Position numbers and translations under genes: made by a program. A model generated the notes under the pieces. The model was not told the origin of the DNA, did not search any database, and saw nothing but the letters and a program-made list of their open reading frames with translations. Below, piece by piece: positions 1 to 44,039 of a stretch of 44,039 nt of DNA; position 1 is the stretch's first letter; the number at the start of each line of letters is the position of its first letter. Source of the DNA: a phage; the NCBI GenBank assembly GCA_030821775.1, contig GCA_030821775.1_4700.1. One strand, given 5' to 3'.

Positions 1-48
1 AAAAAAAAAAAAAATAGCCCTACCTCACGGGTAGCGAGATAGGGCATA
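1..48 (-). terminator. Rho-independent terminator after the major capsid gene
   Basis: On the minus strand a GC-rich imperfect hairpin (plus ~17-48, arms GCCCTA/TAGGGC) is followed by a 14-nt U tract (plus A14 at 1-14), ~50 nt past the capsid stop. Confidence 0.6.
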
Positions 49-96
49 GGTTATTACTCGTTCTTAGCTTCCGGCTTGATAGCAGTCGGCTTAACG

Positions 97-1260
97 TCAG
101 CCGCCAGTACCGGTAGCTACCAGATCTTCAGCAGGCATGAGGGCAGCAGCGGCAGCACCTGCCGGAGCGGCATTCTTGACATACACAGCTTTGCGCTGTG
201 CACGGCTAAGAACTTGAGTGTGCTGTTCTCCATCAGCACTCACGGCACCACCATTAGATGTGTCACGCTTAGTTGTTACAACAGACACTGCTTCCCAGCG
301 ATCAGGGATTGCGCCTTCAGACATGAAAGTATCAATATAGTAGGTCTTCTCTTTCTTCTCATAGAAAATGTCACCTGTTAAATCAATGGAACGACCCACA
401 AGCAGAGCGTCAGATGTGAACAGTACAGCAATAGCGCCATTCATTTCTGCAATCGGGTCATAACGATAACCGTTGTCTTCATTGGAAAGCAGGTGATGTT
501 TCTGACCCGGAGAGAATTTAGGGAAGCGGTTAGACGGGATAACAGGGCAGTTGTAAGAAGACAGAACAAAGCCCTGAATGGTTGCACCAGACAGACTAAT
601 GGTGTAGGACTTATCAACAATGCGGTCTGCATCCCGCAGGCAGTTGAAGTATTTCCACGGCATCAGGATAGCTACATCAGAGATGTCTACTTCCTGCTCA
701 AGCTGCTGCTCCAGAGCAAATTCTACAGCCGCCATTACATACTGCGGGTTAGCCAGTGCTTCTGCTTCGTTGACCTCTACGTTGATAGAGAAGCCATGAC
801 CTTTAACACGTGGCGTATGACGTTTCTTAACAGTGTTGCGGATACCGCCAAGCAGCATCTGCTGAATCAGCATCTCGTCTTCCATCTTCTTAAGCTGCTT
901 GGCTTGGTTAGTAGCCAGCTTCGGCTTCAGGCTGTCAATGTCACCCTGTACATCGTGCAGGTGTGCAACGGTGTTACGAGCGATAACAGTGGCATCAATC
1001 ACCAACTGGTTTTTATCCGCCTGAGTAGAGGTTGCAGCCGGAGACTGACCCGGTGCCAGAACCTGCAACTCAGTTTCACCCAAGTATTTGTTGCTGACAG
1101 TGTTGGTGCCAGTAACGGTCTGAACATCGAAGTAGCTCATGATGTTCTCGCCTTTCAGGTACTGCTCATTCACCTTACCGTTAAACTTCTCAATGAGAAG
1201 ACTATCTACCTCACCAGAAGCGGAAATAGCAACGTTGGTCAGATTGTTCGGCGTAGACAT
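97..1260 (-). CDS. Major capsid protein (T7 gp10-like)
   Basis: 387-aa ORF with ATG and AAGGAG SD, directly after the scaffold gene, preceded by a phage promoter and followed by a terminator, as in T7-like phages. Confidence 0.8.
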   Translation of the reverse strand: MSTPNNLTNVAISASGEVDSLLIEKFNGKVNEQYLKGENIMSYFDVQTVTGTNTVSNKYLGETELQVLAPGQSPAATSTQADKNQLVIDATVIARNTVAHLHDVQGDIDSLKPKLATNQAKQLKKMEDEMLIQQMLLGGIRNTVKKRHTPRVKGHGFSINVEVNEAEALANPQYVMAAVEFALEQQLEQEVDISDVAILMPWKYFNCLRDADRIVDKSYTISLSGATIQGFVLSSYNCPVIPSNRFPKFSPGQKHHLLSNEDNGYRYDPIAEMNGAIAVLFTSDALLVGRSIDLTGDIFYEKKEKTYYIDTFMSEGAIPDRWEAVSVVTTKRDTSNGGAVSADGEQHTQVLSRAQRKAVYVKNAAPAGAAAAALMPAEDLVATGTGG

Positions 1261-1314
1261 ATAATAAAATCTCCTTATAAATCAAGTGGATATTTAGGGA
1301 GGCAATACCTCCTT

Positions 1315-1332
1315 CTATAGTGTCCCCTAAAT
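1315..1332 (-). promoter_or_regulatory. SP6-type phage promoter driving the capsid gene
   Basis: Plus strand CTATAGTGTCCCCTAAAT is the reverse complement of ATTTAGGGGACACTATAG, one mismatch from the SP6 consensus, between scaffold and capsid genes. Confidence 0.75.
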
Positions 1333-4627: not shown

Positions 4628-4825
4628 TTAATCGTCGGTTTCTTCTTCGTCGTCACCGTAAAGCTCCTCGACTTTCTCTTTAATTGCCTCGATAGACAGG
4701 CCAAGCTCTTCGGCCTCTGCAAGAATAGTGTAAGGTGGAGTCATGCCGCATGAGTAACTTTCAAAGATAGCCTCTGCTACCTCAACGGCACGAGTTGCCT
4801 TCATGGAATCAAATACTTGTGTCAT
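4628..4825 (-). CDS. Small acidic hypothetical protein
   Basis: Track ORF 4628..4879 trimmed to the first ATG (MTQVFD...); C-terminus is acidic (GDDEEETDD); upstream of the GNAT gene. Confidence 0.35.
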   Translation of the reverse strand: MTQVFDSMKATRAVEVAEAIFESYSCGMTPPYTILAEAEELGLSIEAIKEKVEELYGDDEEETDD

Positions 4826-6804: not shown

Positions 6805-6859
6805 AATTAAATCCTCCATTCACTATACAATCAAGGCAAGCTAATACCTGCCCTTTGTT

Positions 6860-6877
6860 CTATAGTGTCACCTAAAT
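6860..6877 (-). promoter_or_regulatory. SP6-type phage promoter
   Basis: Plus CTATAGTGTCACCTAAAT is an exact reverse complement of the SP6 consensus core; overlaps the stop codon of the phosphoesterase gene. Confidence 0.8.
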
Positions 6878-10369: not shown

Positions 10370-10423
10370 ATTTAAATTCTCCTTTGTTAATTGTGGCATT
10401 ATCGCCGATTAAAATTCTCCCTT

Positions 10424-10441
10424 CTATAGTGTCCCCTAAAT
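10424..10441 (-). promoter_or_regulatory. SP6-type phage promoter
   Basis: Plus CTATAGTGTCCCCTAAAT (one mismatch to consensus) in the intergenic gap. Confidence 0.75.
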
Positions 10442-11509: not shown

Positions 11510-11702
11510 TAATTTATTCCTCCTGTTGTTTGTTAGCTTTGTACTGAGCACAAGCATGTACTCACTAGAAAGCCCGATACTATATCGGGTTGTGCAAGAT
11601 GCACAAGAGGTTCAACACTTTACAATCATAGGACGTGCTTAGGATTTACGCTCACTGAGCACCTTGGATTTACTGTCTCTGACAAACCCACGTCCTATTG
11701 TT

Positions 11703-11720
11703 CTATAGTGTCACCTAATT
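11703..11720 (-). promoter_or_regulatory. SP6-type phage promoter (variant)
   Basis: Plus CTATAGTGTCACCTAATT; overlaps the stop of gene 11719..12096. Confidence 0.65.
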
Positions 11721-12096: not shown

Positions 12097-12165
12097 ATTT
12101 ATATCTCCTATATTTACTTAATTACCTATACTACCTATAAGACCTTTATTACCTTGGTCTTCCTT

Positions 12166-12183
12166 CTATAGTGTCACCTAAAT
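12166..12183 (-). promoter_or_regulatory. SP6-type phage promoter
   Basis: Plus CTATAGTGTCACCTAAAT, exact consensus, between DNA polymerase stop and the next gene. Confidence 0.8.
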
Positions 12184-16098: not shown

Positions 16099-18090
16099 CT
16101 AGAACTCCTGCTCTTCTTCGAAGTTACCTTGTTCTATAGTGTCCCCTAAATCAGCAGGCACCTCTTGCTGCTTAGGTACACCTGTATCAAAGCTCTTGGT
16201 TCGTGCTTGTGGTTCCCTCAATCTACCGGTAGCAAGGTCTCCTTTAAGCATAACCTTAGTTCCTGTGAAGATACCTTGGTCACGGTCTTTGACACATGAG
16301 ATGTACGTGGTAGTCCTTTCATCAAGCGTTTCAGCTCTTGTGTTACGCTCAATCCCCAATGCGTAAGATGCCCAGAATCCGATAGCTCCTGAGCCTCGGA
16401 AGTCAGAAAGGATAACCTCGCCACCTTCCTCGTGTTGGGTGCGGTTCCCCGCAGGACGTGTAAGGTGTGATACAAGGAATATAGTAACTGGGTGTCGGTC
16501 TTTGATAGTACCAATCCGCTTGACGCATTCATCAAGTGCACCAACCTTCCCACCATATGCTCTTTCATCTAATTTAATCCCAGTTAAGTTATCAATAAAG
16601 ATATTCTGAATCCCCATAGCTTCAAACTCTAAGCAGGTCTGCTCAATCTTCTCCATTGAGTAGTCACCTTCGAGGTCAGCTACAAAGAACTTACCCGTAT
16701 CAGCCACGTAGTCGATAGCTTCAGCCGCTTCCTCATCGGTATAGTCCAGCACCTCGCGGTAGCCATCCTCTTGCGGGTCGTTGGTTGGCGGCAACTCAAT
16801 GCGCTTATCAATCCACTTCCCGATGAATGCACGGGCAACCTTCTTGGTTGGGTCTTCTGTAGAGATAATGCCTACAGACTCGCCGTGCTCTTCGATGAGG
16901 TGCTTAACCACTTCACGAAGGAACTCAGTCTTACCTACACCGGAGCCAGCACCGACGATGATTAGCTGGTGCTTACGGATACCAAGCGTTACCTTGTTCA
17001 GCTTAGGCCAAGGCCACGACAGCCCTTCTTCTGGACGTGCCTGCTTGAGTTCGTCACGCATAGACGCAACGGACTTAATCTGGCTACCGAAGACTTCCTC
17101 AGAAGACTTGGCATTAAACCAAGCATCGACAAACTCTTTGGCCTTACCCGCCATCAAAGACTTGTTAGCATCCTTGCAACCACTTGGATACTCAAGGATG
17201 TAGGATTTGCCGGGAAACAGGCGAGCCGCTTGTTGGTTCTGCTTCTGCCCTACCTCGTCGCCATCGAATCCCCAGATAATCTTCTTGAATTGGGCGATGT
17301 GTTCACGGTTCTGCACAATCTCTTCAAGGCAAGATTCACCTTTGTTAACAGACCACACATGGTAAGGTTGCCCTTCCCACTTAGTACCCTTGGCAGAATC
17401 AAGGAGCATTTGCTGGGCTGCTAATGCATCCAGTTCACCACCCACGATAAGCAAGATATCTTTTCTTCTTCCCTTGTCCAACGTGTTGGACAGGGTATTC
17501 ATACCGAAAAGATCTTGTGTACCAAAGAGTTTACCTAGGTGTCCGAACTTAAAATCCTTCGGCAACGTCCGGCATTTTGCTCCAACAAGCACCCCCTTTT
17601 CATATCGTGGATAATAGTGACGGTTGACTCTTCCCTCTTCATCGTGTCCAACGCGCACATCGTACATTGCTGCGATGTCACCTCGAATGTGACGGGATAC
17701 AAGGTTCTTACGCTTAAGCGTGAGGAACCATTCAACATCAAGTTTCCACTCTGTTTCTTGGTCTGCCCTTTCTTGCTCATTCATAACCTCCCAACGGTCT
17801 TTCATACGCATACCACCAAGGGCGATGGCGCGTAGTTTAGGGTCGCTTATCTTCCCTTCTTTCTCCATCTCTTTGAATTGAGAAGGTGTGTATTTGATGT
17901 TGCCGGTAATAGGCAACTCGGTTATTTCGATGCCACCTTCCGGCTTATGGTAATAAGGTCTGCCATTATCATGGAAGTGACCACGGTTACAGTAGCCAGC
18001 ACCATCCTCGAATATCATAAGGTGGTTGCCTGATTTATCGTGTCCATTCTTCTGGCATTGAGGGCACGGAATGTTATTAATAATAGCCAT
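16099..18090 (-). CDS. DNA primase/helicase (T7 gp4-like)
   Basis: 663-aa ORF with an N-terminal Cys4 zinc ribbon (CPQC...C..GH) and a Walker A P-loop (GAGSGVGKTE) in the C-terminal helicase half. Confidence 0.9.
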   Translation of the reverse strand: MAIINNIPCPQCQKNGHDKSGNHLMIFEDGAGYCNRGHFHDNGRPYYHKPEGGIEITELPITGNIKYTPSQFKEMEKEGKISDPKLRAIALGGMRMKDRWEVMNEQERADQETEWKLDVEWFLTLKRKNLVSRHIRGDIAAMYDVRVGHDEEGRVNRHYYPRYEKGVLVGAKCRTLPKDFKFGHLGKLFGTQDLFGMNTLSNTLDKGRRKDILLIVGGELDALAAQQMLLDSAKGTKWEGQPYHVWSVNKGESCLEEIVQNREHIAQFKKIIWGFDGDEVGQKQNQQAARLFPGKSYILEYPSGCKDANKSLMAGKAKEFVDAWFNAKSSEEVFGSQIKSVASMRDELKQARPEEGLSWPWPKLNKVTLGIRKHQLIIVGAGSGVGKTEFLREVVKHLIEEHGESVGIISTEDPTKKVARAFIGKWIDKRIELPPTNDPQEDGYREVLDYTDEEAAEAIDYVADTGKFFVADLEGDYSMEKIEQTCLEFEAMGIQNIFIDNLTGIKLDERAYGGKVGALDECVKRIGTIKDRHPVTIFLVSHLTRPAGNRTQHEEGGEVILSDFRGSGAIGFWASYALGIERNTRAETLDERTTTYISCVKDRDQGIFTGTKVMLKGDLATGRLREPQARTKSFDTGVPKQQEVPADLGDTIEQGNFEEEQEF
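16134..16151 (-). promoter_or_regulatory. SP6-type phage promoter inside the 3' end of the primase/helicase gene
   Basis: Plus CTATAGTGTCCCCTAAAT located within the last ~17 codons of the gene. Confidence 0.7.
17475..17492. repeat. Conserved palindrome, copy P4, inside the primase/helicase coding sequence
   Basis: Perfect palindrome TGTCCAACGTGTTGGACA; encodes ...TLSNTLDKG... about 200 codons into the gene. Confidence 0.8.
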
Positions 18091-18238: not shown

Positions 18239-18269
18239 GGTTAAATCTCCAAAGTAAGTTAGTCTTGTT

Positions 18270-18287
18270 CAATAGTGTCACCTAAAT
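18270..18287 (-). promoter_or_regulatory. SP6-type phage promoter (variant, downstream member of tandem pair)
   Basis: Plus CAATAGTGTCACCTAAAT, one substitution from consensus, with palindrome P5 directly upstream. Confidence 0.65.
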
Positions 18288-18305: not shown

Positions 18306-18432
18306 ACCTAGGTCTTCCCTTTATGTATAAGGAAAGGAAGTAATAGGAAGTAACCCAGTGTTACCTATGTAACCTATATTACCTACTACTTCCTATTACT
18401 ACCTATGACTTTCCGTCTCCGACGGGTTGGTC

Positions 18433-18450
18433 CTATAGTGTCTCCTAAAT
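18433..18450 (-). promoter_or_regulatory. SP6-type phage promoter (upstream member of tandem pair)
   Basis: Plus CTATAGTGTCTCCTAAAT; ~30 nt downstream of the RNAP terminator, with palindrome P6 directly upstream. Confidence 0.7.
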
Positions 18451-18542: not shown

Positions 18543-21161
18543 TTAAGCAAAACAGTAGTCGCTATCCATGATTTCGTTCAGGTCAAAGCTGCCTTGCTCT
18601 GGCACTTCGATGCCAGTATCAACCATCCAGCGGTCTTCGTGCTCATCAAGCAGTTTCTGCAAGGCGTTCCCTTCTGAGTACATGCCAACCATTTCTGATT
18701 TCAGTGCATGACGCAGCTTAGCGGTATTGTCTGCGTGAGTACCAAAGGAGTCGTGAATCACTGCAATACTCGTCACCCCTTCATCAACCAGATGACAGAC
18801 GGTCAGAATCAGGTGGCTTGCGTCATGACCATGAACGAAGTTAGGCGCTGCTGCTCCCATCATAGCGGTTTCATCCACTACATCAGTTTCAACTTGCAGA
18901 CTCATTTTGATGTCACCCATCAGGCAGGTGCGCACACGGAGCATCTCGGTCGCCATAATTTTCTGCTTCAGGATGAAGCCAGTTGGCAGTGGGTATTCCA
19001 ACCCTTCATTGCGCTTAGCTGCAAAGCGAGCCAACTTGCGAATCATCTGCATCGCCACTACCGGAGCCTTAACAACCTCAGAGATGGAAGGCCAGATGAG
19101 CGCCGTCATGTAGTTGTATGCTTTAGCCGGAGTAAGTTCACCGTTATCATCAAACGGGTGCACACGGTTCGCTGCGCGCCCTTCTGCCACCGCCATTTGT
19201 GCCTCTTTCTCTTCCAAATCGACGATATAGTCAATCACAGAATCACGGCAGGTGATGCGAGTAGAGCCGTAAGGCAGCGTCATTACTGGTTTCTTGGTCA
19301 GGCCACGGGTAATGCCTACGCTATCCCATGCGCTAGCCATAGCTCGAAGGTCAGAGCCGGAGAGGGTTAGGCTTCCGCTCGTGAAGGTCGTCCCTTCTTC
19401 GGCATCCATATAGAGCACATTTTTAGAAATGACCACCTGTGCAACCGCGCCGTAAATATCCTGCGGAGCGTCGGACGGCTTCAGGTTTACAGCTTTAGCG
19501 CCCACCTCATCGCGTAACATAGCGGAGTAATGCTGAATGCCGGAGCAAGAGCCATCTTGGTGGACTGGCAGGTGAGTTTCGAAATCGGCCTGCGTCCCTT
19601 TATCCAGTGCATCCAGATAGCGGGAGTATTCGAAGCACCAAGCAAGAAATTGGTACGGCTCATCCGCTTTAGCCCACTGTGTGAAAGTCAGCGGGTCGGC
19701 TGCAATGTCACGGCACATATCTTGGAAATCACCGTCTAACACGTTGGACTGACGTACGTCAAAGGTCTTCTTATCCCAACCCCACAGGTTAGCGCCCAGC
19801 ACGAGGAACCATTTAAGAGCTCCAGCGCTGTCAATCTTCCGCCCCTCTGTGAAGCGTAACAGAGATTTACCCAGGTCGTTAGACTGTGGGGACAGGGTGG
19901 AAGATTGAGCGTAAACACGGCTGCGGCTGTCCATCACGTAGACGAAGTAGATGGATTCAAAGGCGCTATATTTGCGAGCCTGTCCAATCATGCGAACCAC
20001 GGCGGCAGACTTGGAGCCGCGCTTTGTTTCGGCGGTGTATAGTCGCGCACACTCCCCTTTCCAGTTAATGAACGCCTGCCATTGCTCTTCTGATAGCATT
20101 TCTTTCAATTCACGACCCCGAAGATGTTGGAACTCAACCGGAACAGGGTTAGCAGGCTTGTTTTCCTTGTCAATTAGTGGCTTAAAGGACGGCACACCAT
20201 AGCCCAAATCAAGGCGGATGACGTCTTCAGCTACCGCTAAAACCTCTTTGTTAACCTGCCATTTGGTGTTTTGTAAGGCGTTAATAGCCTTGTACACCTT
20301 AGGCATTTGCTTAACAGTAAGTTTGCGAACATGCTCACGGTCGCCCTTAACCAGACGCACACGACTAGCCACCTTCTCAGTATGGAAGCCACCATTAAAC
20401 GGGGTTTTCCAAGGACGAGGAGGAACAACGCAAGGAGCATAGGCTGGGGCCAGTTGTGCTACGTGCTCTTTAAAGGCTGCAATCCATTGGCCTACAGTTT
20501 CGGAGGTTTGCAGGTAATAAATAGTTTTACCGCCAAATGAGCGCATAGCGCGAACGAACACAGGCTCACCGTTGTAGAATACGCTAGCTTCTAGTATTTC
20601 CAGCAGGGTAGTACCAATCTGCAATTGTGTATCTTTAGGCCATGCCTCCCAGCGGTCAAAGTCAGCGTCTTTAGCGGCTACAGACTTCTCAGCCACTACA
20701 GCTACATTGTGAGCGTGACGGTATGACTTGGTGCGGCTAGCCTTAAGCGATTTCTTCACTTTCTCGAAGTATTTCGCGGCGTGGCCTTCCAGCTTGCTGA
20801 AGCGCACTTGGTCTTCGATGCGCTCGGCAATGCTCATAGAAATGGCCTGCAATGTTACATCAGTGTTCAGCATATCCATAACTACCTTCATGGTAATATA
20901 GGCTGCCACCTCGTTTTCTACACACTGTAAGAAGGCTAGGGCACGAGGAGCGCGGCCTTTCTTGCCTTCGTATTCTTCTTTGTAAGCCTGAATGCCTTCA
21001 GCCATAGGCGCGATTAATTCAGACAGCAGGCGGCGATTCCATGCCGTATCTGATTCATTACCCGATGCTATTTGGCGCTGTTGGTCTGCCTCAAAGCGAC
21101 GGATCCCGCCATTAAACATTTCTTCTTCAAGCTGAAGCTGGATAGCGTGTAAGTCCTGCAT
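18543..21161 (-). CDS. Single-subunit DNA-dependent RNA polymerase, SP6-type
   Basis: 872-aa ORF with AGGAG SD; N-terminus [32 protein letters not shown]... and overall sequence match my recollection of SP6 RNAP almost residue for residue; consistent with the SP6-type promoters across the genome. Confidence 0.95.
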
Positions 21162-22097: not shown

Positions 22098-22167
22098 ATA
22101 GTCACTATTTGGTTTGTTGAGATAATTTAATCGGGCGCTAACAAGTAACGCCCTGTTAAGTCATCTC

Positions 22168-22185
22168 TTATAGTGTCACATAAAT
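22168..22185 (-). promoter_or_regulatory. SP6-type phage promoter (variant)
   Basis: Plus TTATAGTGTCACATAAAT, two deviations from consensus, upstream of the 290-aa early gene. Confidence 0.55.
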
Positions 22186-22290: not shown

Positions 22291-22620
22291 TTACTCTTCC
22301 TCTTCGTCTTCATACCAAACTACACTGCTATTATTTGGCACATCATTATAAAGCGCCTCATAAATGCGAGCCTGTAGAATCTTGGTTACGTCCTTAGTGT
22401 CAGAAATCAAGCCAGCATCCTCGAATTCGGTATCAATACCGTCGGCTGCCATCACAGTAAAGATTTCATGATAATAGTGAGGTACCTTGCCGTCTACAAC
22501 CTCATGCAGTGCATCAGAATAATCATCATCTTCACGGATACCATCGTATTGAATGCGTTCATTGAATGCTTCAACAGTTGCAGCCAGAAGTTCATAATAA
22601 GCGTTTGCATCACGTTTCAT
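22291..22620 (-). CDS. ocr: Ocr-like DNA-mimic anti-restriction protein (T7 gp0.3 homolog)
   Basis: 109-aa highly acidic ORF with GAGGA SD. The core ERIQYDGIREDDD...VPHYYHEIFTVMAADGIDTEFEDAGLISDTKDVTKILQARIYEAL aligns closely with T7 Ocr as I recall it; acidic C-terminal tail. Confidence 0.8.
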   Translation of the reverse strand: MKRDANAYYELLAATVEAFNERIQYDGIREDDDYSDALHEVVDGKVPHYYHEIFTVMAADGIDTEFEDAGLISDTKDVTKILQARIYEALYNDVPNNSSVVWYEDEEEE

Positions 22621-23288: not shown

Positions 23289-23467
23289 TATTTACCCTCC
23301 CTCAGCTCATCTATCATGTTACGGTATTGATTAACCGTATCGGTCCAACCTTCGTTAATGAAACGGTGATACAAAGCTAGCTCATCATCTGTAAGCAATT
23401 CGTTGTTACGAATCATATAGCATAACAAGGTGAAGAGAACGGATAGTTCACGGTTGTTTAATGTCAT
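23288..23467 (-). CDS. Small early protein (first gene after host promoter)
   Basis: Track ORF 23288..23509 begins at an alternative start; the ATG at 23467 has a GAGGAA SD and gives a 59-aa product. Confidence 0.45.
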   Translation of the reverse strand: MTLNNRELSVLFTLLCYMIRNNELLTDDELALYHRFINEGWTDTVNQYRNMIDELREGK

Positions 23468-23610
23468 AGCTAATTCCTCATTCAATAAGTAATTAACCAC
23501 GGCATACACAGGTTACACTAAGCAAATTGTTAAAGAGCAATGTAGGCGCTAGTCTCTTCGTAGGCCTTACTAGCTGGCTACTAGGTGCCTCAGCACCGCC
23601 TACGTGATGC

Positions 23611-23639
23611 ATTATGCATACACTAAGATAACTTGTCAA
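23611..23639 (-). promoter_or_regulatory. Sigma70-type host promoter for early transcription
   Basis: Minus strand reads TTGACA, 17-nt spacer, CATAAT (-35 at plus 23634-23639, -10 at plus 23611-23616), ~100-140 nt upstream of the first early gene. Confidence 0.5.
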
Positions 23640-23650
23640 CACTCTTTATC

Positions 23651-23668
23651 GTCCAACATGTTAGACAA
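23651..23668. repeat. Conserved palindrome, copy P7 (imperfect)
   Basis: GTCCAACATGTTAGACAA, one mismatch in the right arm, just upstream of the -35 of the putative host promoter. Confidence 0.6.
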
Positions 23669-23789
23669 GGCAAACTAAGGCAGTTCGAGGCAGATTTCAG
23701 GTGTTCCCTACTGCATCTTATTATTCTTCTCTTTCTTTAGCGGTCTACCGACCGCGACCTATTCGCATCTTATAGCGTAGCTATGCAAT

Positions 23790-24170
23790 CACTAAGGTAA
23801 CACTAAGACAGCAATAGATAGCCACTAAGCTAGTCACTAAGGTAGCTACTAAGGAAGTGACTAAGGTATTACTCAAGGTACACGTCAGGTAGTGCAGCGA
23901 GCGATAGCGAGCAATGGCGGGCAAATGGACAGATAGCCCACGCCCACACACGCTGTCAAGCGTCCCATAAGCGCCCTAAATGGCCCTGTGCCTGCACTAA
24001 GAGGCTTCACTAAGGCAATCACCTTGTCCAACACTAAGCCCACCCATAGGCTGTCCTAGGCCGTCTACCGCGTTCCACCTTACTAGTACACGGCAAAACG
24101 AGGACGGCCCTTGTGTACCACTAAGCTAGTACATGTGCCTGCACTAGTAAACTAGTACAACCAAGCCACC
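23790..24170. repeat. Short direct-repeat arrays in the non-coding genome-terminus region
   Basis: About 12 copies of CACTAAG(G) and relatives, four copies of ACTAGTACA, GCGAGC and GGCGAG triplets, and a 13-bp direct repeat TGTGCCTGCACTA at ~23987 and ~24134; no ORF with SD on the coding strand. Confidence 0.55.
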
Positions 24171-24440
24171 CTATGGGGACATCCCGGCGAGGGCGAGGGC
24201 GAGAGAGCTGACACACGCCTATATCAAAATTTTGACTTTGGTTACTTTGTGTACATCCATAATGAATACATCAGGGCAGCCAATAGGCTACCTGCACAAG
24301 CTATAGCGATAACCTGTAGCCAATTCTTAGGGTCTGTAGGTTCATATGAAACCCAACCATCTTTCAGCATGTTACCTCCCTTGGAATACACTAAGGACAA
24401 ACCTAAGTCTGCCCTTGTTTATACTAAGATATTAACCTGC

Positions 24441-28298: not shown

Positions 28299-28382
28299 GC
28301 TATCTCCTATTACTTCCCAACCCTCCCCATGAAGATTGGCTAGTAATAGGCCGCTCAAAAGAACGGCACTATCTTATCTCTT

Positions 28383-28400
28383 CTATAGTGTCTCCTAAAT
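28383..28400 (-). promoter_or_regulatory. SP6-type phage promoter upstream of the tailspike genes
   Basis: Plus CTATAGTGTCTCCTAAAT ~85 nt upstream of the tailspike 1 start. Confidence 0.7.
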
Positions 28401-29891: not shown

Positions 29892-30031
29892 TATCTCTCC
29901 TATTATGTAAATATAGTAAGGAATGAAGGAATAGGGTGTACAGGAGTACACCCATACTAAGGCATACCTAGATATAACCTAGGTTAACCTATATTATCCT
30001 TGTTATTTCTCTTATTCTCTGTGCCCTCCTC

Positions 30032-30049
30032 CTATAGTGTCCCCTAATT
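30032..30049 (-). promoter_or_regulatory. SP6-type phage promoter (variant) at the 3' end of the large terminase gene
   Basis: Plus CTATAGTGTCCCCTAATT overlapping the terminase stop codon. Confidence 0.6.
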
Positions 30050-31946
30050 ACCAAGTCCTTGATATTCTTGAAGAAAGAGTATTTCGAGACTTGACCTGCA
30101 TCGTGGGTGCATTTCCGTAGACACGGCGCTGCATTGCCACTGACGTATTCACCTGTTTTCGATAACCGTGGTCTTGTCCTGTGAAGAACTCACGGCGACG
30201 GCGAGGGTCATGCATCATCTCAAGATAATCGCGCATCTCCTGCGCTCTGAGGCGATTTATCCGGTTAACCTCGTCATAGTCTATCTGAGAAGTTAATTGC
30301 CGTATAGCGCCGTACAGTGCGTCTAAGCGGTCATCATGTCGCAGGCACCCTTTCTCCAGAGTGATGTTCGAGATTTGAGCAAACAGGCTGTAGCTCATCC
30401 GAACCTCCAGAGGGTAGTGCTGGATGCTGTCAATGTCCTGCTTGATCATCTCAGCGTTGAAGATGATGCGGTGCGCGGAGAACAGCGGTTCAAGCGTCTC
30501 GATGATACGAACCTCTTTCTGACCGTGTGCGTAGTCTTCTTTCAACTCGGCAGGCCACTCACGTTCGAAGTATGGCTTAATTACCGCCTCAAACGCACCG
30601 TGACCGAAGTTCTTCTCTATGAAGACCTCTTTTACCCCTGCGGCCTTAGCCTCGCGCACAATGCGACTGAGCGCGTTCTCGGAGTATCCGCCAGGCACAC
30701 CGAAGCATTTATAGACGTAGATGAACGTCCCCAACAGGAATACGATAGCCACGCCAGTTTCGTCGCCGTTCTTACCGCCACCAGCGGGGTCAATGTACAT
30801 GACGCGGCGCTGGATTGGTCGCCACTCATACGGGCGTGCAACCGGACGGTACAGGTAGTCTGTAGGCTTGTTACCGAAGCGCGGAGCGTCACCAATCAAG
30901 TTGAGAGTGTCGTTGCTCCAAGTCGGCATCTCTGGGACAACATCTGTACCAAAGCTCATGCAGATAAGCTGGTTCAGGCGCAGGGGGTAACGGTCTGCGT
31001 CCATCAGGCGCGTGTTCAGCATGAACTGTAGCTGGAACTTAGCAGTACCTTGTGAGATTTCCTTCTCAATCAGCTTCTCGTCATCGTACATTTCAGGGCA
31101 AGTTGGAGCGCCCTGAGTCCCGTCGATGCCATAACCTGAGCGCAGTGACGGGTCTTCCATCATATCTTGGCGAATCATCGGTGCGAGGAAGTCGCCGTAG
31201 CAAGCCTCCTGCTCTAACGTTGGATACCGTCCGGGCCAGATTCGAATCTGATAGCCACGCGCTGGTAAGTTGTTGTAGATGGAGTTCACGCTCTGAGGCG
31301 TACCAAGGTAGATGATGTCACCGAACTGGTTGATTGATTCAAACTCTTTGGTCAGGTCTTCCAGCAAGGCACGGCCTGCTGCGGTACGGCTGTTCTGCAA
31401 CGATTCAACGTCATCAGCCAAGATGATGTCTGCACGAGCACCCTGCATACCCGCCTCGATAGAGTAGCAGGCCACGGACGGAGACTTGTCACTACCACGT
31501 AATGTGTAGTGAATCTCAAAGCCTTTGATTGAAGCCTTGTCACCTGCGTAGATGTCAGGCAACATGAACTCCAAGAAGTCCAGACCACGGAAGATTTTGA
31601 TAACCCAGCCTGCGATTTCCTCTGCACGCTTGGCTGTCTGCGACACAATCATGATACGCTTGTGTGGTTCATGGATGATACGAAATACAGAGTAGATTGC
31701 AGCGATTGTGGTCTTAGCCTGTCCACGCTGTGCCTCTACCATTCGATATTTGTTCCCACTGAATAGGAACTTTAAGATATCCGCTTGTACCCGATTCAAA
31801 TCAGGGTTGCCAGTGATTAATGTATTGATTACAACCTGAGCGAATGACAGAAGTCCCTGCACGGTATACGGGAATGTTTGTTGTAACTCGTGCAGCAACT
31901 CCCAACGGGCAAGGGCTTCTGCCTGAGATTCCCTTGCTTTTGCCAT
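30048..31946 (-). CDS. Terminase large subunit
   Basis: 632-aa ORF with AAGGAGG SD; start overlaps the small-subunit stop (TAATG); ATPase and nuclease-sized domains; position as T7 gp19. Confidence 0.85.
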   Translation of the reverse strand: MAKARESQAEALARWELLHELQQTFPYTVQGLLSFAQVVINTLITGNPDLNRVQADILKFLFSGNKYRMVEAQRGQAKTTIAAIYSVFRIIHEPHKRIMIVSQTAKRAEEIAGWVIKIFRGLDFLEFMLPDIYAGDKASIKGFEIHYTLRGSDKSPSVACYSIEAGMQGARADIILADDVESLQNSRTAAGRALLEDLTKEFESINQFGDIIYLGTPQSVNSIYNNLPARGYQIRIWPGRYPTLEQEACYGDFLAPMIRQDMMEDPSLRSGYGIDGTQGAPTCPEMYDDEKLIEKEISQGTAKFQLQFMLNTRLMDADRYPLRLNQLICMSFGTDVVPEMPTWSNDTLNLIGDAPRFGNKPTDYLYRPVARPYEWRPIQRRVMYIDPAGGGKNGDETGVAIVFLLGTFIYVYKCFGVPGGYSENALSRIVREAKAAGVKEVFIEKNFGHGAFEAVIKPYFEREWPAELKEDYAHGQKEVRIIETLEPLFSAHRIIFNAEMIKQDIDSIQHYPLEVRMSYSLFAQISNITLEKGCLRHDDRLDALYGAIRQLTSQIDYDEVNRINRLRAQEMRDYLEMMHDPRRRREFFTGQDHGYRKQVNTSVAMQRRVYGNAPTMQVKSRNTLSSRISRTW

Positions 31947-32245
31947 TAAGCCTCCTTAGCGAAAGCGATAACCTTACCTTGTGAAGCCTGTTTCAACTGA
32001 GCCAGACGCTTAGACAGCTTGGATTCCTCCTGTTGTGCTGCTGGCGTAGCGGTGATGCCGTTATCCAGCACCCACTTACACATCGCACCAACATCCTTAC
32101 CGGACACTAGGCCGATTGTCGCATCAGGGTTATCTTCGATTGCATCTAAGATAGCCTGTGCTTTCTTGTTGAACATCTTCGTAATTGCATTGTGTAGAAT
32201 ACCTACATCATCTTCCGATGCAGCATGTCTGTTATGATTGCTCAC
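31946..32245 (-). CDS. Terminase small subunit (T7 gp18-like)
   Basis: 99-aa ORF, GTG start with GGAGG SD, immediately upstream of and coupled to the large subunit. Confidence 0.6.
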   Translation of the reverse strand: MSNHNRHAASEDDVGILHNAITKMFNKKAQAILDAIEDNPDATIGLVSGKDVGAMCKWVLDNGITATPAAQQEESKLSKRLAQLKQASQGKVIAFAKEA

Positions 32246-32423: not shown

Positions 32424-32433
32424 AGCAACCTCC

Positions 32434-37193: not shown

Positions 37194-37226
37194 ATTACCT
37201 CCTTAGTTAATGCCATTCATAAAGGC

Positions 37227-37244: not shown

Positions 37245-37259
37245 ACCTTGAGTATGACA

Positions 37260-40205
37260 CTAATTGATCTTCACTCGCCCAATCTTAGTGTTTGCAGCGA
37301 GTTTGCCAGCGGCAGGCGGGTATACCTGCATCCAGCCGTTCTTGTCGATCTTGTTGAAATGAGACTTACTGACGAATGCCTCGGACATTTCACCAGCGAA
37401 CTTAACGTACATAGAGCCATCTGCACGAGTTTCTACTTCGCTAATCTTAGGAACAGCTCCACCACTCTGTGCTAGGTTGTAGGCTTCTGCACGACGAACC
37501 AATAGGCCAGTTTGACGCTTACCTTCGGAAGATGCAGTGGCTAGCATTTCAATAAACCCATCAGTAAACCGACCAGCCTTGAACGCTTCATATGCACGAG
37601 GTGACTTCTGGATGCCACCTCTACCAAGGTTGTAGCTTAAATCCATGATACCACGCTGTACACCGGGATGCATTTTGTCAAAAGGCACAGCCCAATCACG
37701 AGTAGAAGGTACATGGCTCTTCATGTCCTGCTTGAGAAGTTTCATAGCTCGCTCTGGTGTCAGTTGAGACTGACCAGCTTTGAACGGAACTTTCTCTGAA
37801 CCAATCATGATGTAGCCATTACGCTTCTCTTCGGCAGTCAGGAAGTGACCATATCCAACCGAATGACCATGTGCATCTTTGTACGGTGTGTACACGCCAG
37901 CAACTCGATCAAAGCCAACGTTCATCTGGTTCTCTGTCTTGGCTACATAGTCGAAGAATGTCTGGTTCTTCTTCTCGTAGCCGAACTCAAAGTTAGCAGG
38001 TAGGTTCTCACCAGCAGCAAAGGCAGGAGACATAAGGAAGTCAGCAATACCACGCTTGCCTACTGTCTTAGCAGTAACGTCACCTTTCTGCATAGGCTGC
38101 GCTTGGTAGCCACCAGCACCCCACATGCGCATCTGCTGTGCTTCAAAGTTCTTCTTAGCATCATCACGCTCTTTCACTTTAGCGTCGTAATGTTCCTTGA
38201 GCAACGCTTGTCCTTTAATTTCAGACAGTGGCATTGCTGGAGTGAGAGGCGTTCTGGCAGAACCCCCACGGATTGTGAACATACCACGCTTAGAATCAAC
38301 ATCAATGTAGATGTCAGATTCATCTAAACCTCCTGAATTATCAAGCAATTCCTGCTTGTGGTTATCGATGTACTGACGTAATGCTGTAGGTACATCATTC
38401 TGGTTTACACCTATAGTGTCACCTAAACCACGAGCATCACCTTTGACCAACACACCTTGAGTGAAGAAACCTTCGGAAAGCTGCGTATACTGAGATGTCA
38501 GATAGGATTGCAAGTGACGCTTGATGGTGTCATTGTTGTGACCTGCAATCTTCATCGCACGGGCGATAGTCATTGCATCATCCATCACAAGTGCTTTACC
38601 AGTGTCGCTCATGTTATCTCCAAGAGTTAACCAGCTACCACCAGCAATATCATCAACCACACCCTCAACATCACTGGACAATTCTTTGAGAACTGAGCCT
38701 TGCAACTTCTCACCTTTTGCAACGTTCTGAGCAAACTCAATCGCCTGACCCACGTTGTATCCCATCTGTAACGCCTTGTCGTAGTTCTCCACAAAGGCGT
38801 ACTCCTTGTCGCCCATCACTGCACGGCGGGAGTCTTCTGGAATAGAGTCACGCGCCATCATGATTGTCTTGAGCGCCTCCGGCTCTGCTGTCATATCCTT
38901 AAGGTTAGCAGAAGACATTTGCATCAGTGAGTCGTAACGAGCCTTGATGTTCGGGTCTTTGATGAGTTGCTGCCCCAGCTTGGCATATCGCATGATTTCG
39001 TACTTACCACGGATAGCCTCTGCCGCCTCTCCGGTTGCTCCGGTTCGTGCAATCTCATCGTTTGCCAGCTTGGTGAACACACCAGCGATACCTTCTGCAT
39101 AGTCGTTACGGTCTTTCTCACTAATGTCTTGCAAGCCAAGAGGTGAACCAGATTGACCGCGTGCAAGCAGGTCTTGCATCTTGGCTTCCTCTGCGTTCTT
39201 CTTAGCTACCTTGTCGAACAGTGATTTGATTTCACCGTCAGACCAAGCAGTGCCTCCAGAGATTTGGTTGTGATTCTGCATGATTTGCAGCATCTCTTCT
39301 CGGTCAAGCTCTCCAGCTTCGAATGCCTGAATCGCTGCATCCTTCTTCTCGAAGAGTGCAACCTGATTCTGAGCAGCCCAGTTACGGTTAGCTTGAATCT
39401 CGGCAGTCTGTAGCTTGCCATTCCGCTGGTACAGGGACACACCGTTCTTGTCTTTCAGAGACTTCGTTGCTTCAACAAAGGTGTCATCACCAACAGCAGC
39501 ACGCTCCATAGCAATCTGAGCAATCATCTCTTCATACTCAGGCTTGGTAAGCTGCATGGTGATAGCTTCCTGCTGTAGCTGGTGTAATGCGTCATCAAGA
39601 GCACCACCAGACAGACCTTCTGTAACCATCAGGACACGAGACTGCATAGCCTGTGTGCGCTCTTGTGCTTCACGTTCCAGCTTGGCGCTCATACGGGCAG
39701 CGAAGATTTTAGGTTGCTGCTCCATGAATGCGTTAGACACAGTACGCATGGTTTCTTTGTCCCCGATAAGTCCGGGGTACTGCTGGTATACTTTCTCCTG
39801 AATCTGGTTGCGGGAGTTAACAACCATTTGCTCCCACTCTTGGTCTGTGCCAGTGAAGCGCTTTGCTGCATCCTGTAATGCGATAGATTGTCCTATCACG
39901 TCGTTCTGCAACTGCACCAGCATATGTGCACGAGCGCCACCAACAGTGGCATCATCGGACGGCATCAGACCCTGCAAGGCTCGGTCATATTGACGAACCT
40001 TGTCATCCTCTACCGCCTGATTCATGATTTCCGTGCCTACCTTGGCGAATGCACCAGCGGCGCTAAACAGGTCATCAAGGAATGCGGAGCCTGTACGCTC
40101 CAGCACTGGCTCGCTTACCTGAATAGCGGAGGTGGAAGCACCACGCGGTGCTCCCTTAGATTGTACTTGCTGCAAGCCTTGCACTGCTTGCCGTTCAATT
40201 GCCAT
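37260..40205 (-). CDS. Internal virion protein with C-terminal T4-lysozyme-like domain (gp15-like position)
   Basis: 981-aa ORF with AAGGAG SD; C-terminal region contains YKDAHGHSVGYGHFLT, closely resembling the T4 lysozyme block YKDTEGYYTIGIGHLLT. Confidence 0.75.
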   Translation of the reverse strand: MAIERQAVQGLQQVQSKGAPRGASTSAIQVSEPVLERTGSAFLDDLFSAAGAFAKVGTEIMNQAVEDDKVRQYDRALQGLMPSDDATVGGARAHMLVQLQNDVIGQSIALQDAAKRFTGTDQEWEQMVVNSRNQIQEKVYQQYPGLIGDKETMRTVSNAFMEQQPKIFAARMSAKLEREAQERTQAMQSRVLMVTEGLSGGALDDALHQLQQEAITMQLTKPEYEEMIAQIAMERAAVGDDTFVEATKSLKDKNGVSLYQRNGKLQTAEIQANRNWAAQNQVALFEKKDAAIQAFEAGELDREEMLQIMQNHNQISGGTAWSDGEIKSLFDKVAKKNAEEAKMQDLLARGQSGSPLGLQDISEKDRNDYAEGIAGVFTKLANDEIARTGATGEAAEAIRGKYEIMRYAKLGQQLIKDPNIKARYDSLMQMSSANLKDMTAEPEALKTIMMARDSIPEDSRRAVMGDKEYAFVENYDKALQMGYNVGQAIEFAQNVAKGEKLQGSVLKELSSDVEGVVDDIAGGSWLTLGDNMSDTGKALVMDDAMTIARAMKIAGHNNDTIKRHLQSYLTSQYTQLSEGFFTQGVLVKGDARGLGDTIGVNQNDVPTALRQYIDNHKQELLDNSGGLDESDIYIDVDSKRGMFTIRGGSARTPLTPAMPLSEIKGQALLKEHYDAKVKERDDAKKNFEAQQMRMWGAGGYQAQPMQKGDVTAKTVGKRGIADFLMSPAFAAGENLPANFEFGYEKKNQTFFDYVAKTENQMNVGFDRVAGVYTPYKDAHGHSVGYGHFLTAEEKRNGYIMIGSEKVPFKAGQSQLTPERAMKLLKQDMKSHVPSTRDWAVPFDKMHPGVQRGIMDLSYNLGRGGIQKSPRAYEAFKAGRFTDGFIEMLATASSEGKRQTGLLVRRAEAYNLAQSGGAVPKISEVETRADGSMYVKFAGEMSEAFVSKSHFNKIDKNGWMQVYPPAAGKLAANTKIGRVKIN
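38412..38429 (-). promoter_or_regulatory. SP6-type promoter-like sequence inside the gp15-like gene
   Basis: Plus CTATAGTGTCACCTAAAC, one mismatch at the upstream end, within the coding sequence. Confidence 0.5.
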
Positions 40206-40214
40206 TTAAACTCC

Positions 40215-40883: not shown

Positions 40884-43294
40884 TATACCCTCCGCTTACT
40901 TGGATTGTATGTACCTTCCCACTCAATGTCACGTAGCTGCAACGTGTGCGGCGCTGTAGACTTAAGTCGGTATGTCACATCCGTACTTTTCGCACGTAAC
41001 GGAAACCGAACCACACCTTCGAATGGCTTCACGTAACCTACTCGGTTGGAGAGAGCACCGCCTCTACGGTTCGATGCCTTAACTGTGCGTGTTTTGCCAC
41101 TCTGAGTATTAGTAACTTCGATAGTGAAGTCAGGGTACTTATCCATGTTTAGGTGAACAAGACCGATGGTAGGTACGTCAATGTGTGAGGTACGCTCTTG
41201 CGAATCCTTGATGATGACAGGTGTAGGCTCAAACTCCTGAGAGTAAAGTTCACCCACCACACAATGAACGACAGAGTTCTCCTCACCTAAGTCGAAGGTT
41301 GTATACAATCGGTTTCCGTCATCTTCATGCTGGAAGAGGAACGAGCCACCAGTGTACGCAGGCCAACCTTTAGTGATGACACATTCCAGAAGTTCTGGAT
41401 GGTTCACCTCCCAAGGTAGGCGGCTGGAATACCAACCATCAGAGGCTTGGTCGTATGCAAACGATATAAGCGCTCGACGGTCAAGACGGATGCGATCATC
41501 TAGGTGATACTCCAAGGCATCACCCATGTCCATCTTCTCAAGGAACACACCAGATGTGCCACGCTCAATGATGACATATAAGGTTTCACTAGAGTAGAAC
41601 ATACCGCAAAGCCTTGCATCGCTAGGCCAAACCCACTTATGCCATGCTGCCTGTACACGCTCAGTCCCTTGCCACAACCAGTCATATACATATGCTACAT
41701 TTCGTCTCTTGTCGGTAAGGACAATGAGGCGGTTGATGTTAGAGCTAGCAATCATTGAGATGATATTACCTTCCAACAGTCGGTTCACATGACTTGTGAT
41801 GGGTTGTGCCTTCTTAGTGTCAGTGTAGGAATCTGTGTAGAACTCACGAACACCAGAGTATGCACCTTCACTAGTTGCGAACATTACAGACTCACCTGTA
41901 GCAACTGGCCTTACATGATTATTCACCTCGAAAGCTGTAGTTGGCCTCAGAAGTGCATTATCCTTGGTAAGTGCTTTATCTCCGGGAAGGATGAACTGAG
42001 AGTTATCTGAGAACAACACAGTGTCTCCATCCAAGGTTATTGCATGTTTTAACTGGTATACCTCACTTGCATCTGAGAAGATGTCGATTGGGTCGGTATC
42101 CAACGCTGATAAGACGGTGTACCTGAAGAAGTCGAAGAAATGTGAAGTACGAGTCATGATAACCGCTTCACCTGCGGTTACGCAGAGTCGGTTCTGCACC
42201 ATGAACATGCCACCAATCGTCTGAGGGACATCGTCATCAATGAAGGAAGGCATTGGGTTAGTCAAGTCATCGCCCACCTTCCTGTCTTCCCAGTCTCCTT
42301 GGCGAATAGTGAACTGTGCAATACCGTTAACAATACGGGTACGCTCGATGATATAAGGCATTGTTGCCTTGTCAAAACCTAGCTGCGCACCTGCTGCCAC
42401 CGTCTCTTTCCAAGTTACAAGGTTTCCCTCTTTCGGCTCTGCCTGTAACCAATATCGAGATTCAGGCTTACTTCCGGTAGGCCACACTTGTACCTTATAT
42501 CCCGCAGGAGCATGAGAAGGTAGCAGGTCAGTGGACGCCACTTTGTACTTGATTGCAACTAAGTCTTTACCCTTAGCTCCATCTGTGGTTGATACAGTAA
42601 AGTCTCTGCTTCCATCAGTTCGTGTGATGTAAATGCAGGTGTCTTCAAGCTGTACGCTGTAAGTTCCTCCCGTGACGAGTGCGTGCTTCTGTATCGACTC
42701 GTAAAGTTTGCTTGCGATGACCCCTGTCCTGATTTGCTCAACCTGCTCAGCGCTACCACCATCCGGTGTTTTGAATGAAGCTACAGTTGTTCCGTCTAAA
42801 CTTATACTGTAATTCGTACCATACTGACCGTAGGCGCAGAATACGATTGCAGTAGAGCCGACCTCTGGCGCTTTCTCTTGTCTTGCTTTGACTACCTTTC
42901 GTCGGTTAAGCATAAAGGTAACGTCAGCGATTGTCATAAACTGCACATCTTCTCTGGGGTTCTGGACTTCATTAAGGTACGTCATAGGTGCGTCCTGCGA
43001 AGACAGAGGACAACGATTCCCTGCTTTGTCGTAAATCTCAGGTACAACTCCTTTCTTCAAGAAGAAGAAATACTCTTCGTTATCATCTCCTCGGCGATAA
43101 TGGTGTAGCGCCATGTCATCTGTTGCCGAATCCATTAATCTGGCAGTATGGACTGTCCCCATTCGTGACTTGGTTCCGTCAACAACATCTGGAACCATGT
43201 TCACCATATCAGTACACTGACCGGGCAGGCGAACTGCTGGCGGTTGTTGGCTGATTCCTTGAATCTGCCTACCTAGTGAACCTTGTACCTCCAT
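40883..43294 (-). CDS. Tail tubular protein B (T7 gp12-like)
   Basis: ~803-aa ORF (track start at 43306 is TTG; ATG at 43294 has GGAGG SD and overlaps the upstream stop as ATGA); size and position match T7 gp12. Confidence 0.8.
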   Translation of the reverse strand: MEVQGSLGRQIQGISQQPPAVRLPGQCTDMVNMVPDVVDGTKSRMGTVHTARLMDSATDDMALHHYRRGDDNEEYFFFLKKGVVPEIYDKAGNRCPLSSQDAPMTYLNEVQNPREDVQFMTIADVTFMLNRRKVVKARQEKAPEVGSTAIVFCAYGQYGTNYSISLDGTTVASFKTPDGGSAEQVEQIRTGVIASKLYESIQKHALVTGGTYSVQLEDTCIYITRTDGSRDFTVSTTDGAKGKDLVAIKYKVASTDLLPSHAPAGYKVQVWPTGSKPESRYWLQAEPKEGNLVTWKETVAAGAQLGFDKATMPYIIERTRIVNGIAQFTIRQGDWEDRKVGDDLTNPMPSFIDDDVPQTIGGMFMVQNRLCVTAGEAVIMTRTSHFFDFFRYTVLSALDTDPIDIFSDASEVYQLKHAITLDGDTVLFSDNSQFILPGDKALTKDNALLRPTTAFEVNNHVRPVATGESVMFATSEGAYSGVREFYTDSYTDTKKAQPITSHVNRLLEGNIISMIASSNINRLIVLTDKRRNVAYVYDWLWQGTERVQAAWHKWVWPSDARLCGMFYSSETLYVIIERGTSGVFLEKMDMGDALEYHLDDRIRLDRRALISFAYDQASDGWYSSRLPWEVNHPELLECVITKGWPAYTGGSFLFQHEDDGNRLYTTFDLGEENSVVHCVVGELYSQEFEPTPVIIKDSQERTSHIDVPTIGLVHLNMDKYPDFTIEVTNTQSGKTRTVKASNRRGGALSNRVGYVKPFEGVVRFPLRAKSTDVTYRLKSTAPHTLQLRDIEWEGTYNPSKRRV

Positions 43295-44025
43295 CAGAAC
43301 CTCCAAGGACGTGGCGGGTAAGAGTCATAAGGCGAGTGAGAGAAACCCGCAACGTTCTGGTAGCCACCAGCCATGACACCAAACTGCGCCTGAGTTGGAT
43401 TATGTACAAGCATATTGAGTCGCTTCTGAGCAGACTGCTCCGCCTGTACGCTTGTGAGAAGTTGAGATGCGATAACTTGGTGAGTTTGCAGTTTAGTCTT
43501 GTCTGCAGCCTTAGACACAATGAACTCACACGCTGCATGATAGGTGATTGCCTGCATCACACTTGTAGGTAGATGCTCGAATGGTAACATCATAACCAGT
43601 GTCAGCCGGATATTGCCGTCACGGTTCACATGGCTACGCAGGTCGAACGTATGATTCCAAGTAGAGTACAGCTTACCTGCTCGCATGGTCATTGGGACTT
43701 TCTTGTCATTAAGACCATAACATTGCAGAACAGCCAAGGTATTGTTAGGTAGGTTCACTTCACCGTTTGAGTCTGGAGTTAGGTTCCAGTTAGGCTCACG
43801 GTTGAACCACCAGCCGTTCCCTTGGTTGTACTGGAAACGCTGTGACACAATATCGACAATCTTGTTCGCATCCTCTGCGTCCAAGTCACCAGACTCTAAG
43901 GAGTCCACACCTTCACGCCCAATGGCTCGCATACACACGTTGACAGCCTCTAACTTGCTATCAATGATGTTGAATGCTGCATCAGACATTAAGGATGTTA
44001 CATCACTTTCCTGAATAAGTGGCAT
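43294..44025 (-). CDS. Tail tubular protein A (T7 gp11-like)
   Basis: 243-aa ORF with AGGAGG SD; if the window is circular, its start follows the capsid terminator at position 1 directly. Confidence 0.75.
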   Translation of the reverse strand: MPLIQESDVTSLMSDAAFNIIDSKLEAVNVCMRAIGREGVDSLESGDLDAEDANKIVDIVSQRFQYNQGNGWWFNREPNWNLTPDSNGEVNLPNNTLAVLQCYGLNDKKVPMTMRAGKLYSTWNHTFDLRSHVNRDGNIRLTLVMMLPFEHLPTSVMQAITYHAACEFIVSKAADKTKLQTHQVIASQLLTSVQAEQSAQKRLNMLVHNPTQAQFGVMAGGYQNVAGFSHSPYDSYPPRPWRF

Positions 44026-44039
44026 GAATCCTCCTAAAC

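Follow-up and report, generated by a model that had tools for sequence, protein, structure and literature searches.

An SP6/K1E-like phage genome in a rotated, reverse-complemented coordinate frame

The phage contig GCA_030821775.1_4700.1, all 44,039 nt of which are here called the window (all coordinates are window positions), begins in the terminator of a major capsid gene and stops just upstream of the start codon of the gene for tail tubular protein A. This raises the question of whether the window ends are also the ends of the phage DNA, or whether a unit genome has been opened at an arbitrary point and its conventional ends lie elsewhere. The original prediction, made from the sequence without database searches, held that the window is a whole SP6-like genome opened within the structural module, collinear with T7/SP6-like genomes only if read circularly, with its conventional left end near 24 kb. 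Here, we confirm that the genome is rotated and reverse-complemented. The interpretation is supported, and we refine it in three respects: the rotation point is now exact, a terminal repeat of 273 bp is predicted, and the contig from which the window derives is identified. We consider it very probable that the window is a complete lytic SP6/K1E-like genome with a collapsed terminal repeat, opened arbitrarily between its capsid and tail genes.

Gene order and contiguity of the window ends

The substantial open reading frames (ORFs) are all on the minus strand of the window. When all 59 K1E proteins were searched against it with tblastn, every homologue was found on that strand and the K1E order was kept. 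The homologues form a single monotonic series: it starts with gp1 at 23467 and descends to 115 with the capsid protein gp31, then resumes at 44025 with gp32 (tail tubular protein A) and ends with gp48 at 24172. The sole break in this series is the window boundary, and the proposal that collinearity appears only on circular reading thus stands. The window is the conventional map reverse-complemented and circularly rotated, with the terminal repeat held as a single copy. After rotation, it is collinear with SP6, K1E and K1-5, the phages against which the original prediction had proposed a dot-plot as its check, and with SE29. The cut falls in the 110-nt spacer that separates tail tubular gene A from the capsid terminator, inside the structural module as had been claimed.

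Both features that the original prediction placed at the window ends are present. At position 1, the capsid terminator consists of a hairpin (45 to 17) followed by TA and a run of 14 T (T14) that reaches down to 1. The hairpin has a 12-bp G+C-rich stem (−21.6 kcal/mol, z = −3.5), a terminator scan agrees with it, and it is found ~50 nt past the end of the capsid-homologous sequence as a positional analogue of T7 T-phi. The hairpin and T14 are identical in SE29, and a homologous hairpin exists in K1E, SP6, K1-5, LL11 and EEc4. At the other end, the minus strand reads GTTTAGGAGGATTCATG, which contains the Shine-Dalgarno sequence and the ATG (44025-44023) of tail tubular gene A. In the actual molecule, 44039-44036, the 4 nt that precede AGGAGG, directly adjoin window position 1. 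The product of this gene is 76-78% identical at the amino-acid level to its homologues in K1E, K1-5 and SP6. We note that the T run is 14 long in the window and in SE29 and 4-5 long in K1E, SP6, K1-5, LL11 and EEc4, and that the window was opened exactly where the T14 homopolymer ends.

The two window ends are contiguous in related phages. By blastn, window positions 1 and 44039 fall on adjoining bases of SE29 (20012 and 20011 of locus L003) and of K1E (25748 and 25747), and on positions 23733 and 23730 of SP6. The joined sequence equals that of SE29 exactly at the junction, over 61 nt on the tail-gene side and ~60 nt on the capsid side, A14 run included. Of 160 phage records that match a 1.4-kb query built over the junction, 113 cover 80% or more of it at a single location. 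Wherever the listed records are annotated, the features under this query are the genes for the major capsid protein and for tail tubular protein A.

The same contiguity is seen in the assembly from which the window derives. An exact-protein look-up identified Logan contig DRR388001_120 (44,069 bp), which was rebuilt whole from three overlapping loci and carries the window sequence. Its first 30 nt are identical to its last 30 nt, an overlap of k−1 being expected of a k = 31 assembler that closes a circle. The window equals this contig minus the 30-nt overlap, rotated by 1,852 bp, with zero mismatches. Moreover, this contig has its ends within tail tubular gene B, at window 42188, and runs unbroken across the 44039/1 junction. 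The read-based assembly therefore passes straight through the point at which the window was cut, and we used it as a stand-in for a raw-read check of that junction. Since the contig closes on itself with a k−1 overlap and holds one copy of the repeat region, the genome is complete. Promoters, RNA polymerase (RNAP), gene order, the self-closing source contig and the one terminal-repeat region all agree with a whole SP6-like genome. Further exact-protein look-ups, for a 222-aa internal virion protein, the primase/helicase and a 125-aa protein, returned no record, although these genes are present in DRR388001_120. IMG/VR exact-pattern scans with the junction sequence and with the capsid end, which bears a deletion described below, were both without match. 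No publication mentioning run DRR388001 came up in a full-text search.

The predicted terminal repeat and the conventional left end

If the window ends are an accident of assembly, where would the ends of the virion DNA lie? The GenBank records of SP6, K1-5 and K1E contain exact direct terminal repeats (DTRs) of 174, 234 and 288 bp, respectively, the SP6 size being taken from its record and from PMC4837284. All three repeats finish …GTGGGCTA/TCTGT, with the slash marking the edge, and all start within GTGTGTCAGC/TC/TC/TCGCCCTCGCC, where the deposited first base varies by 0, 2 or 4 nt. In the window, a left edge reading GTGTGTCAGC/TCTCTCGCCCTCGCC is found at 24206 and a right edge reading …GTGGGCTA/TCTGT at 23934. 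Both edge motifs, as well as the left-flank motif, occur exactly once each in the window. The left end that had been placed near 24 kb can thus be refined to 24206 on the minus strand, from where the genome would begin TCTCTCGCCCTCGCCCTCGCCGGG…; the EEc4 record begins at the same left-edge motif. The predicted repeat is 273 bp long, or 271 or 269 bp under the first-base convention of K1E or K1-5. A search for long direct repeats within the window found none. The repeat is therefore held once, as a collapsed assembly predicts, and an uncollapsed terminal repeat in the window is ruled out.

Further sequence around these edges is shared with relatives. Directly left of the repeat in the concatemer would stand AACCAAAGTCAAAATTTTGATATAGGCGTGTGTCAGC, which is near-identical in SP6, K1E, K1-5 and EEc4 and is likely part of the terminase recognition/processing site. 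On the other side, 13 of the 23 gene-strand copies of CTTAGT fall in the first 800 nt past 24206. Clustering of this motif in the first 1 kb is also found in K1E, SP6, K1-5 and EEc4, and it recalls the short repeat arrays beside the T7 terminal repeat. The copies are often extended as CCTTAGTG. A strong sigma-70-type early promoter candidate lies 295 nt inside the left-end region as measured from 23934, upstream of the first gene. GC skew was uniformly negative on the plus strand, which fits coding on one strand and was of no help in placing the genome ends.

The need for a rotated and reverse-complemented frame, also part of the original prediction, is met by an exact conversion with its rotation point at 24206: x' = 24207 − x for x ≤ 24206, and x' = 68246 − x for x > 24206. 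In this conventional frame the capsid gene occupies 22947-24110 and tail tubular gene A 24221-24952, near the positions of the same genes in K1-5 (22925 and 24188).

We therefore propose an account of how the window came about. The virion DNA would be linear, with a short exact DTR of ~273 bp. Replication would yield head-to-tail concatemers in which neighbouring genomes share one repeat copy, as known T7/SP6 biology suggests. Because neighbouring copies share one repeat in concatemers and in short-read assemblies, the reads close into a loop. This loop was opened arbitrarily, in tail tubular gene B for the raw contig and 1,852 bp further on for the window, which shows the strand opposite to the conventional one. 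During packaging, terminase may cut at the conserved edges, with DNA synthesis duplicating the repeat. Going down the minus strand from the predicted left end at 24206, the terminal repeat is followed by the CTTAGT repeats, the putative host-type early promoter and the early genes, then by RNAP, replication genes, portal, scaffold and capsid, reaching position 1. From 44039 on come the tail-tube genes and those for the internal virion proteins, the adaptor and the terminase, then the lysis genes and two tail-spike genes. After the spikes, the conserved junction motif (24243-24207) would lead into a second repeat copy that in the virion ends at 23934, giving a predicted mature length of 44,039 + 273 = 44,312 bp. 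The apparent circle reflects a linear genome, either through collapse of its terminal repeat or as one unit of a concatemer, and is not a circular chromosome.

This type of opening is a known artefact of how assemblies are represented. For terminally repeated phages such as T7, assemblers yield one terminal-repeat copy and a random first base (PMC5557969). Many deposited relatives of the window phage are also circularly permuted (for example the OZ0357xx Vectrevirus series, OL362272/3, MZ2340xx and KY29589x), and some are reverse-complemented. In the records best covering a query made of the repeat region (40 listed) this region is internal, at ~8, 24 or 42 kb for instance, which shows that such permutation is widespread in databases.

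Alternatives for the physical ends, and the capsid gene end

A different view of the window would take its ends as true packaged ends, belonging to a rearranged genome that runs from tail tubular gene A to past the capsid terminator. The window does start right at a T/A homopolymer and stop 14 nt upstream of a start codon, yet nothing further favours this view. The original prediction had named reads showing the window ends to be true molecular ends as its own refutation. The finding was the opposite: the read-assembled contig DRR388001_120, opened 1,852 bp away, crosses 44039/1 without a mismatch, which excludes such ends. Moreover, the window ends carry neither a terminal repeat nor a cohesive-end signature, the SP6/K1E repeat edges are intact at 24206 and 23934, and 113 relatives are contiguous over the junction. 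We give true ends at this point next to no credence. Headful (pac) packaging, in which the virion DNA would be circularly permuted and terminally redundant and a circular map biologically right, would equally be expected to give a circular assembly without fixed ends. Against it, the large terminase subunit (TerL) has a T7-terminase domain and shares 93.5% of its residues with SP6 TerL, and the type of genome end can be predicted from how terminases are related (PMC4837284); the motifs at both DTR edges, like the junction motif beside them, are conserved in records with exact repeats of 174-288 bp. A headful phage should have a terminase of the P22, P1 or T4 type and no conserved fixed-end motifs, which is not what we find, and we regard this mode of packaging as highly improbable. 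What is present is a TerL of the T7/SP6 clade with conserved sequences at both repeat edges and at the concatemer junction. In the SP6-like phage UAB_Phi78, a 179-bp DTR, near the SP6 repeat in size, was determined by Bal31 digestion and run-off sequencing (PMC4837284). By homology, the virion ends of the window phage would lie exactly at the conserved edges, with terminase cutting there and the repeat being duplicated as in T7. The T7 genome, too, is linear, with short exact direct repeats at its ends that arise from concatemers, and has a terminator just after the capsid gene; however, T7 belongs to another subfamily and has another promoter consensus and a 160-bp repeat, and the likeness in mechanism is a presumed one.

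The circle or concatemer may also have been physically present, if the phage persists in the sequenced Escherichia coli isolate as replicative DNA, in a carrier state or through infection. This is compatible with the linear, terminally repeated virion form that we prefer. In its favour, the exact capsid and portal proteins sit in what appears to be an E. coli isolate assembly from run DRR388001, and the tail spikes are of E. coli K5 type. These two proteins are recorded at NCBI as HDT1684141.1 and HDT1684143.1, third party annotation (TPA) entries named 'hypothetical protein QHT08_00414x [Escherichia coli]'; since they are recorded under E. coli, the phage contig appears to belong to an E. coli isolate assembly of DRR388001. 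However, no integrase, repressor or partition gene is among the Pfam families on record for the called genes, there were zero matches in 5,426 complete E. coli genomes and 72,556 plasmids, and cross-contamination by a phage lysate in the laboratory accounts equally well for the data. The marks of a temperate or episomal element, namely lysogeny, partition or replication-initiator genes and presence in host genomes or plasmids, were thus not found in these searches. The phage could have entered the isolate run by contamination, through an infected culture or in a carrier state, and persistence as replicative DNA appears to us quite improbable. Several points weigh against the preferred reading of a collapsed 273-bp repeat. 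The physical termini, the precise length of the repeat and a coverage twice as high across 23934-24206 are predictions for this phage. The left edge may shift by 0, 2 or 4 nt, since the deposited first base within TC/TC/TCGCC is not the same in SP6, K1E and K1-5. The repeat interior is poorly conserved among relatives, and the prediction rests on the edges only. Lastly, the run looks like that of an E. coli isolate genome, and its phage DNA may be intracellular concatemers rather than virion DNA.

The capsid gene next to the opening point carries a change of its own. Relative to six of six relatives (SE29, K1E, SP6, K1-5, LL11 and EEc4), 8 bp are deleted at ~113/114. The deletion shifts the frame, and the protein ends …VATGTGG at the TGA at 99-97, at a length of 387 aa rather than about 400-404. 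In the +1 frame, the conserved sequence coding for the C-terminus, …VLAADVKPTAIKPEAKNE, is intact, with a stop at ~56-54. An identical shortened capsid protein is encoded by two contigs on record, and the change is most likely a recent, real 8-bp deletion tolerated by the phage. Programmed frameshifting at the capsid 3′ end was considered and rejected; the 0-frame GGC GGC TGA allows no +1 re-pairing, and all six relatives are in frame. A more speculative scenario, and in our view rather an unlikely one, is that a strictly lytic SP6-like phage is stably carried as concatemeric or circular DNA (carrier state or pseudolysogeny), with the capsid frameshift as a linked adaptation or defect; expression of the +1 tail by frameshifting would be an unlikely variant.

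Relatives, mosaicism and further features

Who are the closest relatives of this phage? In a megablast search against 50,697 phage records only Molineuxvirinae were matched (phages of Escherichia, Salmonella, Klebsiella and Proteus). None of these records was near-identical, the best matches being 83-94% identical over parts of the window. Intergenomic similarity, as one-way and approximate values, was 0.75 to SE29 (unclassified Zindervirus), 0.73 to LL11 (Vectrevirus), 0.67 to EEc4, 0.63 to K1-5, 0.62 to SP6 and 0.59 to K1E. All are below the species cut of 0.95, and the phage is therefore a new species. Members of a genus should share 70% or more nucleotide similarity across their genomes; since the present genome is a mosaic, assignment to Zindervirus or Vectrevirus is ambiguous. 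Membership of the Molineuxvirinae is indicated by the collinear gene order, genes on one strand, an RNAP with SP6-type promoters, and an adaptor with two right-end spikes.

The closest overall relatives are the Salmonella phages SE29 (PP526725, vB_SalP_SE29) and PST_H2 (ON461912), whose portal-to-terminase module is 92-94% identical to that of the window phage. SE29 shares the capsid terminator, T14 and the tail tubular A start identically, and its record is also deposited as 'circular'. In contrast, its tail-spike module is unrelated at the DNA level (~3-5% in those bins), its early region is only ~50% alignable, and its capsid C-terminus is intact. The whole 3.9-kb spike module is instead 96-98% DNA-identical to those of the Vectrevirus members LL11 and EEc4. 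Replication genes are 83-90% identical to those of K1-5, K1E, LL11 and EEc4, which have the same DTR edges, whereas amino-acid identity to these Vectrevirus phages is only 38-76% for the spike adaptor, the tail tube and the internal virion proteins. SP6 (NC_004831, the Zindervirus type) has the same gene order and promoter consensus, and its 174-bp DTR edges and flanking junction motif are kept in the window phage; the repeat interior differs in sequence and in size (174 vs 273 bp). Its tail spikes are annotated for a Salmonella host, whereas those of the window phage are of E. coli K5 type.

A mosaic boundary is seen between 24560-28420, which holds the Vectrevirus-like spikes, and 28430-44039, which is SE29/PST_H2-like (91-94%). 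The spike adaptor (32434-33393) is 91% identical to that of SE29 and only 58% to those of LL11 and K1-5. Judged from these identities, Vectrevirus-type spikes appear to be mounted on a divergent SE29-type adaptor and virion chassis. With a Vectrevirus-like spike module and an SE29-like virion module, the genome combines both types.

The coordinates of the features are collected in Table 1. Across the RNAP, terminase, portal, capsid and tail genes, amino-acid identity to K1E, SP6 and K1-5 is 72-94%, and a scaffold was also identified (phrog_1018). Tail spike 2 is the last large gene ahead of the right end. A scan allowing up to 3 mismatches to ATTTAGGTGACACTATAGAAG returned 12 SP6-type promoters, one of them exact, all on the minus strand; 100 shuffles returned none. 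Two ORFs of the HNH/His-Me homing endonuclease type, on the minus strand at 9552-9989 and 4809-5243, stand at positions without a gene in K1E, between gp18 and gp19 and between ligase and gp25. The terL gene is split by an endonuclease insertion in K1E and SE29; that of the window phage is uninterrupted. Searches of the window for tRNAs and for Rfam families found none.

Table 1. Features of the 44,039-nt window, with the strand and the evidence for each
Feature	Position	Strand	Evidence
Whole unit genome, SP6/K1E-like podophage (Autographiviridae, Molineuxvirinae)	1..44039	−	collinear with K1E, SP6 and SE29 once rotated
Predicted direct terminal repeat, 273 bp, one collapsed copy	23934..24206	−	edge motifs shared with SP6, K1-5 and K1E records
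Conserved sequence directly left of repeat in concatemer	24207..24243	−	near-identical in SP6, K1E, K1-5 and EEc4
CTTAGT short-repeat cluster, in and just downstream of terminal repeat	23522..24130	−	13 of 23 gene-strand copies of genome
Sigma-70-type early promoter candidate, TTGACA-17-CATAAT	23611..23639	−	consensus match only, 11/12
First early gene, K1E gp1 homologue	23303..23467	−	tblastn
Anti-restriction gene, ocr-like	22291..22620	−	tblastn; PF08684
SP6-type promoter, 3 mismatches	22165..22185	−	consensus scan
Single-subunit phage RNA polymerase	18543..21161	−	84.6% amino-acid identity to K1E gp7; PF00940
SP6-type promoter, 3 mismatches	18430..18450	−	consensus scan
SP6-type promoter	18267..18287	−	consensus scan
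SP6-type promoter	16131..16151	−	consensus scan
SP6-type promoter, exact SP6 consensus	12163..12183	−	consensus scan
SP6-type promoter	11700..11720	−	consensus scan
SP6-type promoter	10421..10441	−	consensus scan
SP6-type promoter	6857..6877	−	consensus scan
SP6-type promoter upstream of capsid gene, ATTTAGGGGACACTATAGAAG	1312..1332	−	promoter consensus scan
Major capsid protein gene, 387 aa	97..1260	−	tblastn; phrog_267, E = 5e-88
Terminator downstream of major capsid gene	1..45	−	hairpin 45..17, TA and T14 at 16..1
Shine-Dalgarno AGGAGG of tail tubular gene A	44030..44035	−	sequence
Tail tubular protein A gene, 243 aa	43294..44025	−	PF17212 'Tube', E = 5e-56
SP6-type promoter-like site inside internal virion protein gene, 3 mismatches	38408..38428	−	consensus scan
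Terminase small subunit	31946..32245	−	tblastn; PF11123
Terminase large subunit, 632 aa, uninterrupted	30048..31946	−	PF22530, E = 3e-33; 93.5% amino-acid identity to SP6 TerL
SP6-type promoter, 3 mismatches	30029..30049	−	consensus scan
SP6-type promoter upstream of tail spike genes	28380..28400	−	consensus scan
Tail spike 1, K5-lyase type, 632 aa	26400..28298	−	96.2% amino-acid identity to K1-5 gp46
Tail spike 2, beta-helix, 570 aa	24602..26314	−	97.9% amino-acid identity to LL11 gp53

If rotation and reverse complementation are skipped, gene-order comparison, dot plots, length statistics and end annotation are misleading for this contig. The terminal repeat, with ~273 bp extra and a predicted total of 44,312 bp, would be overlooked unless the contig is re-oriented. 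Database-wide comparison of SP6/K1E-like phages likewise calls for re-orientation of the records. Biologically, this is an ordinary phage from a well-studied group, of modest interest for the exchange of host-range modules.

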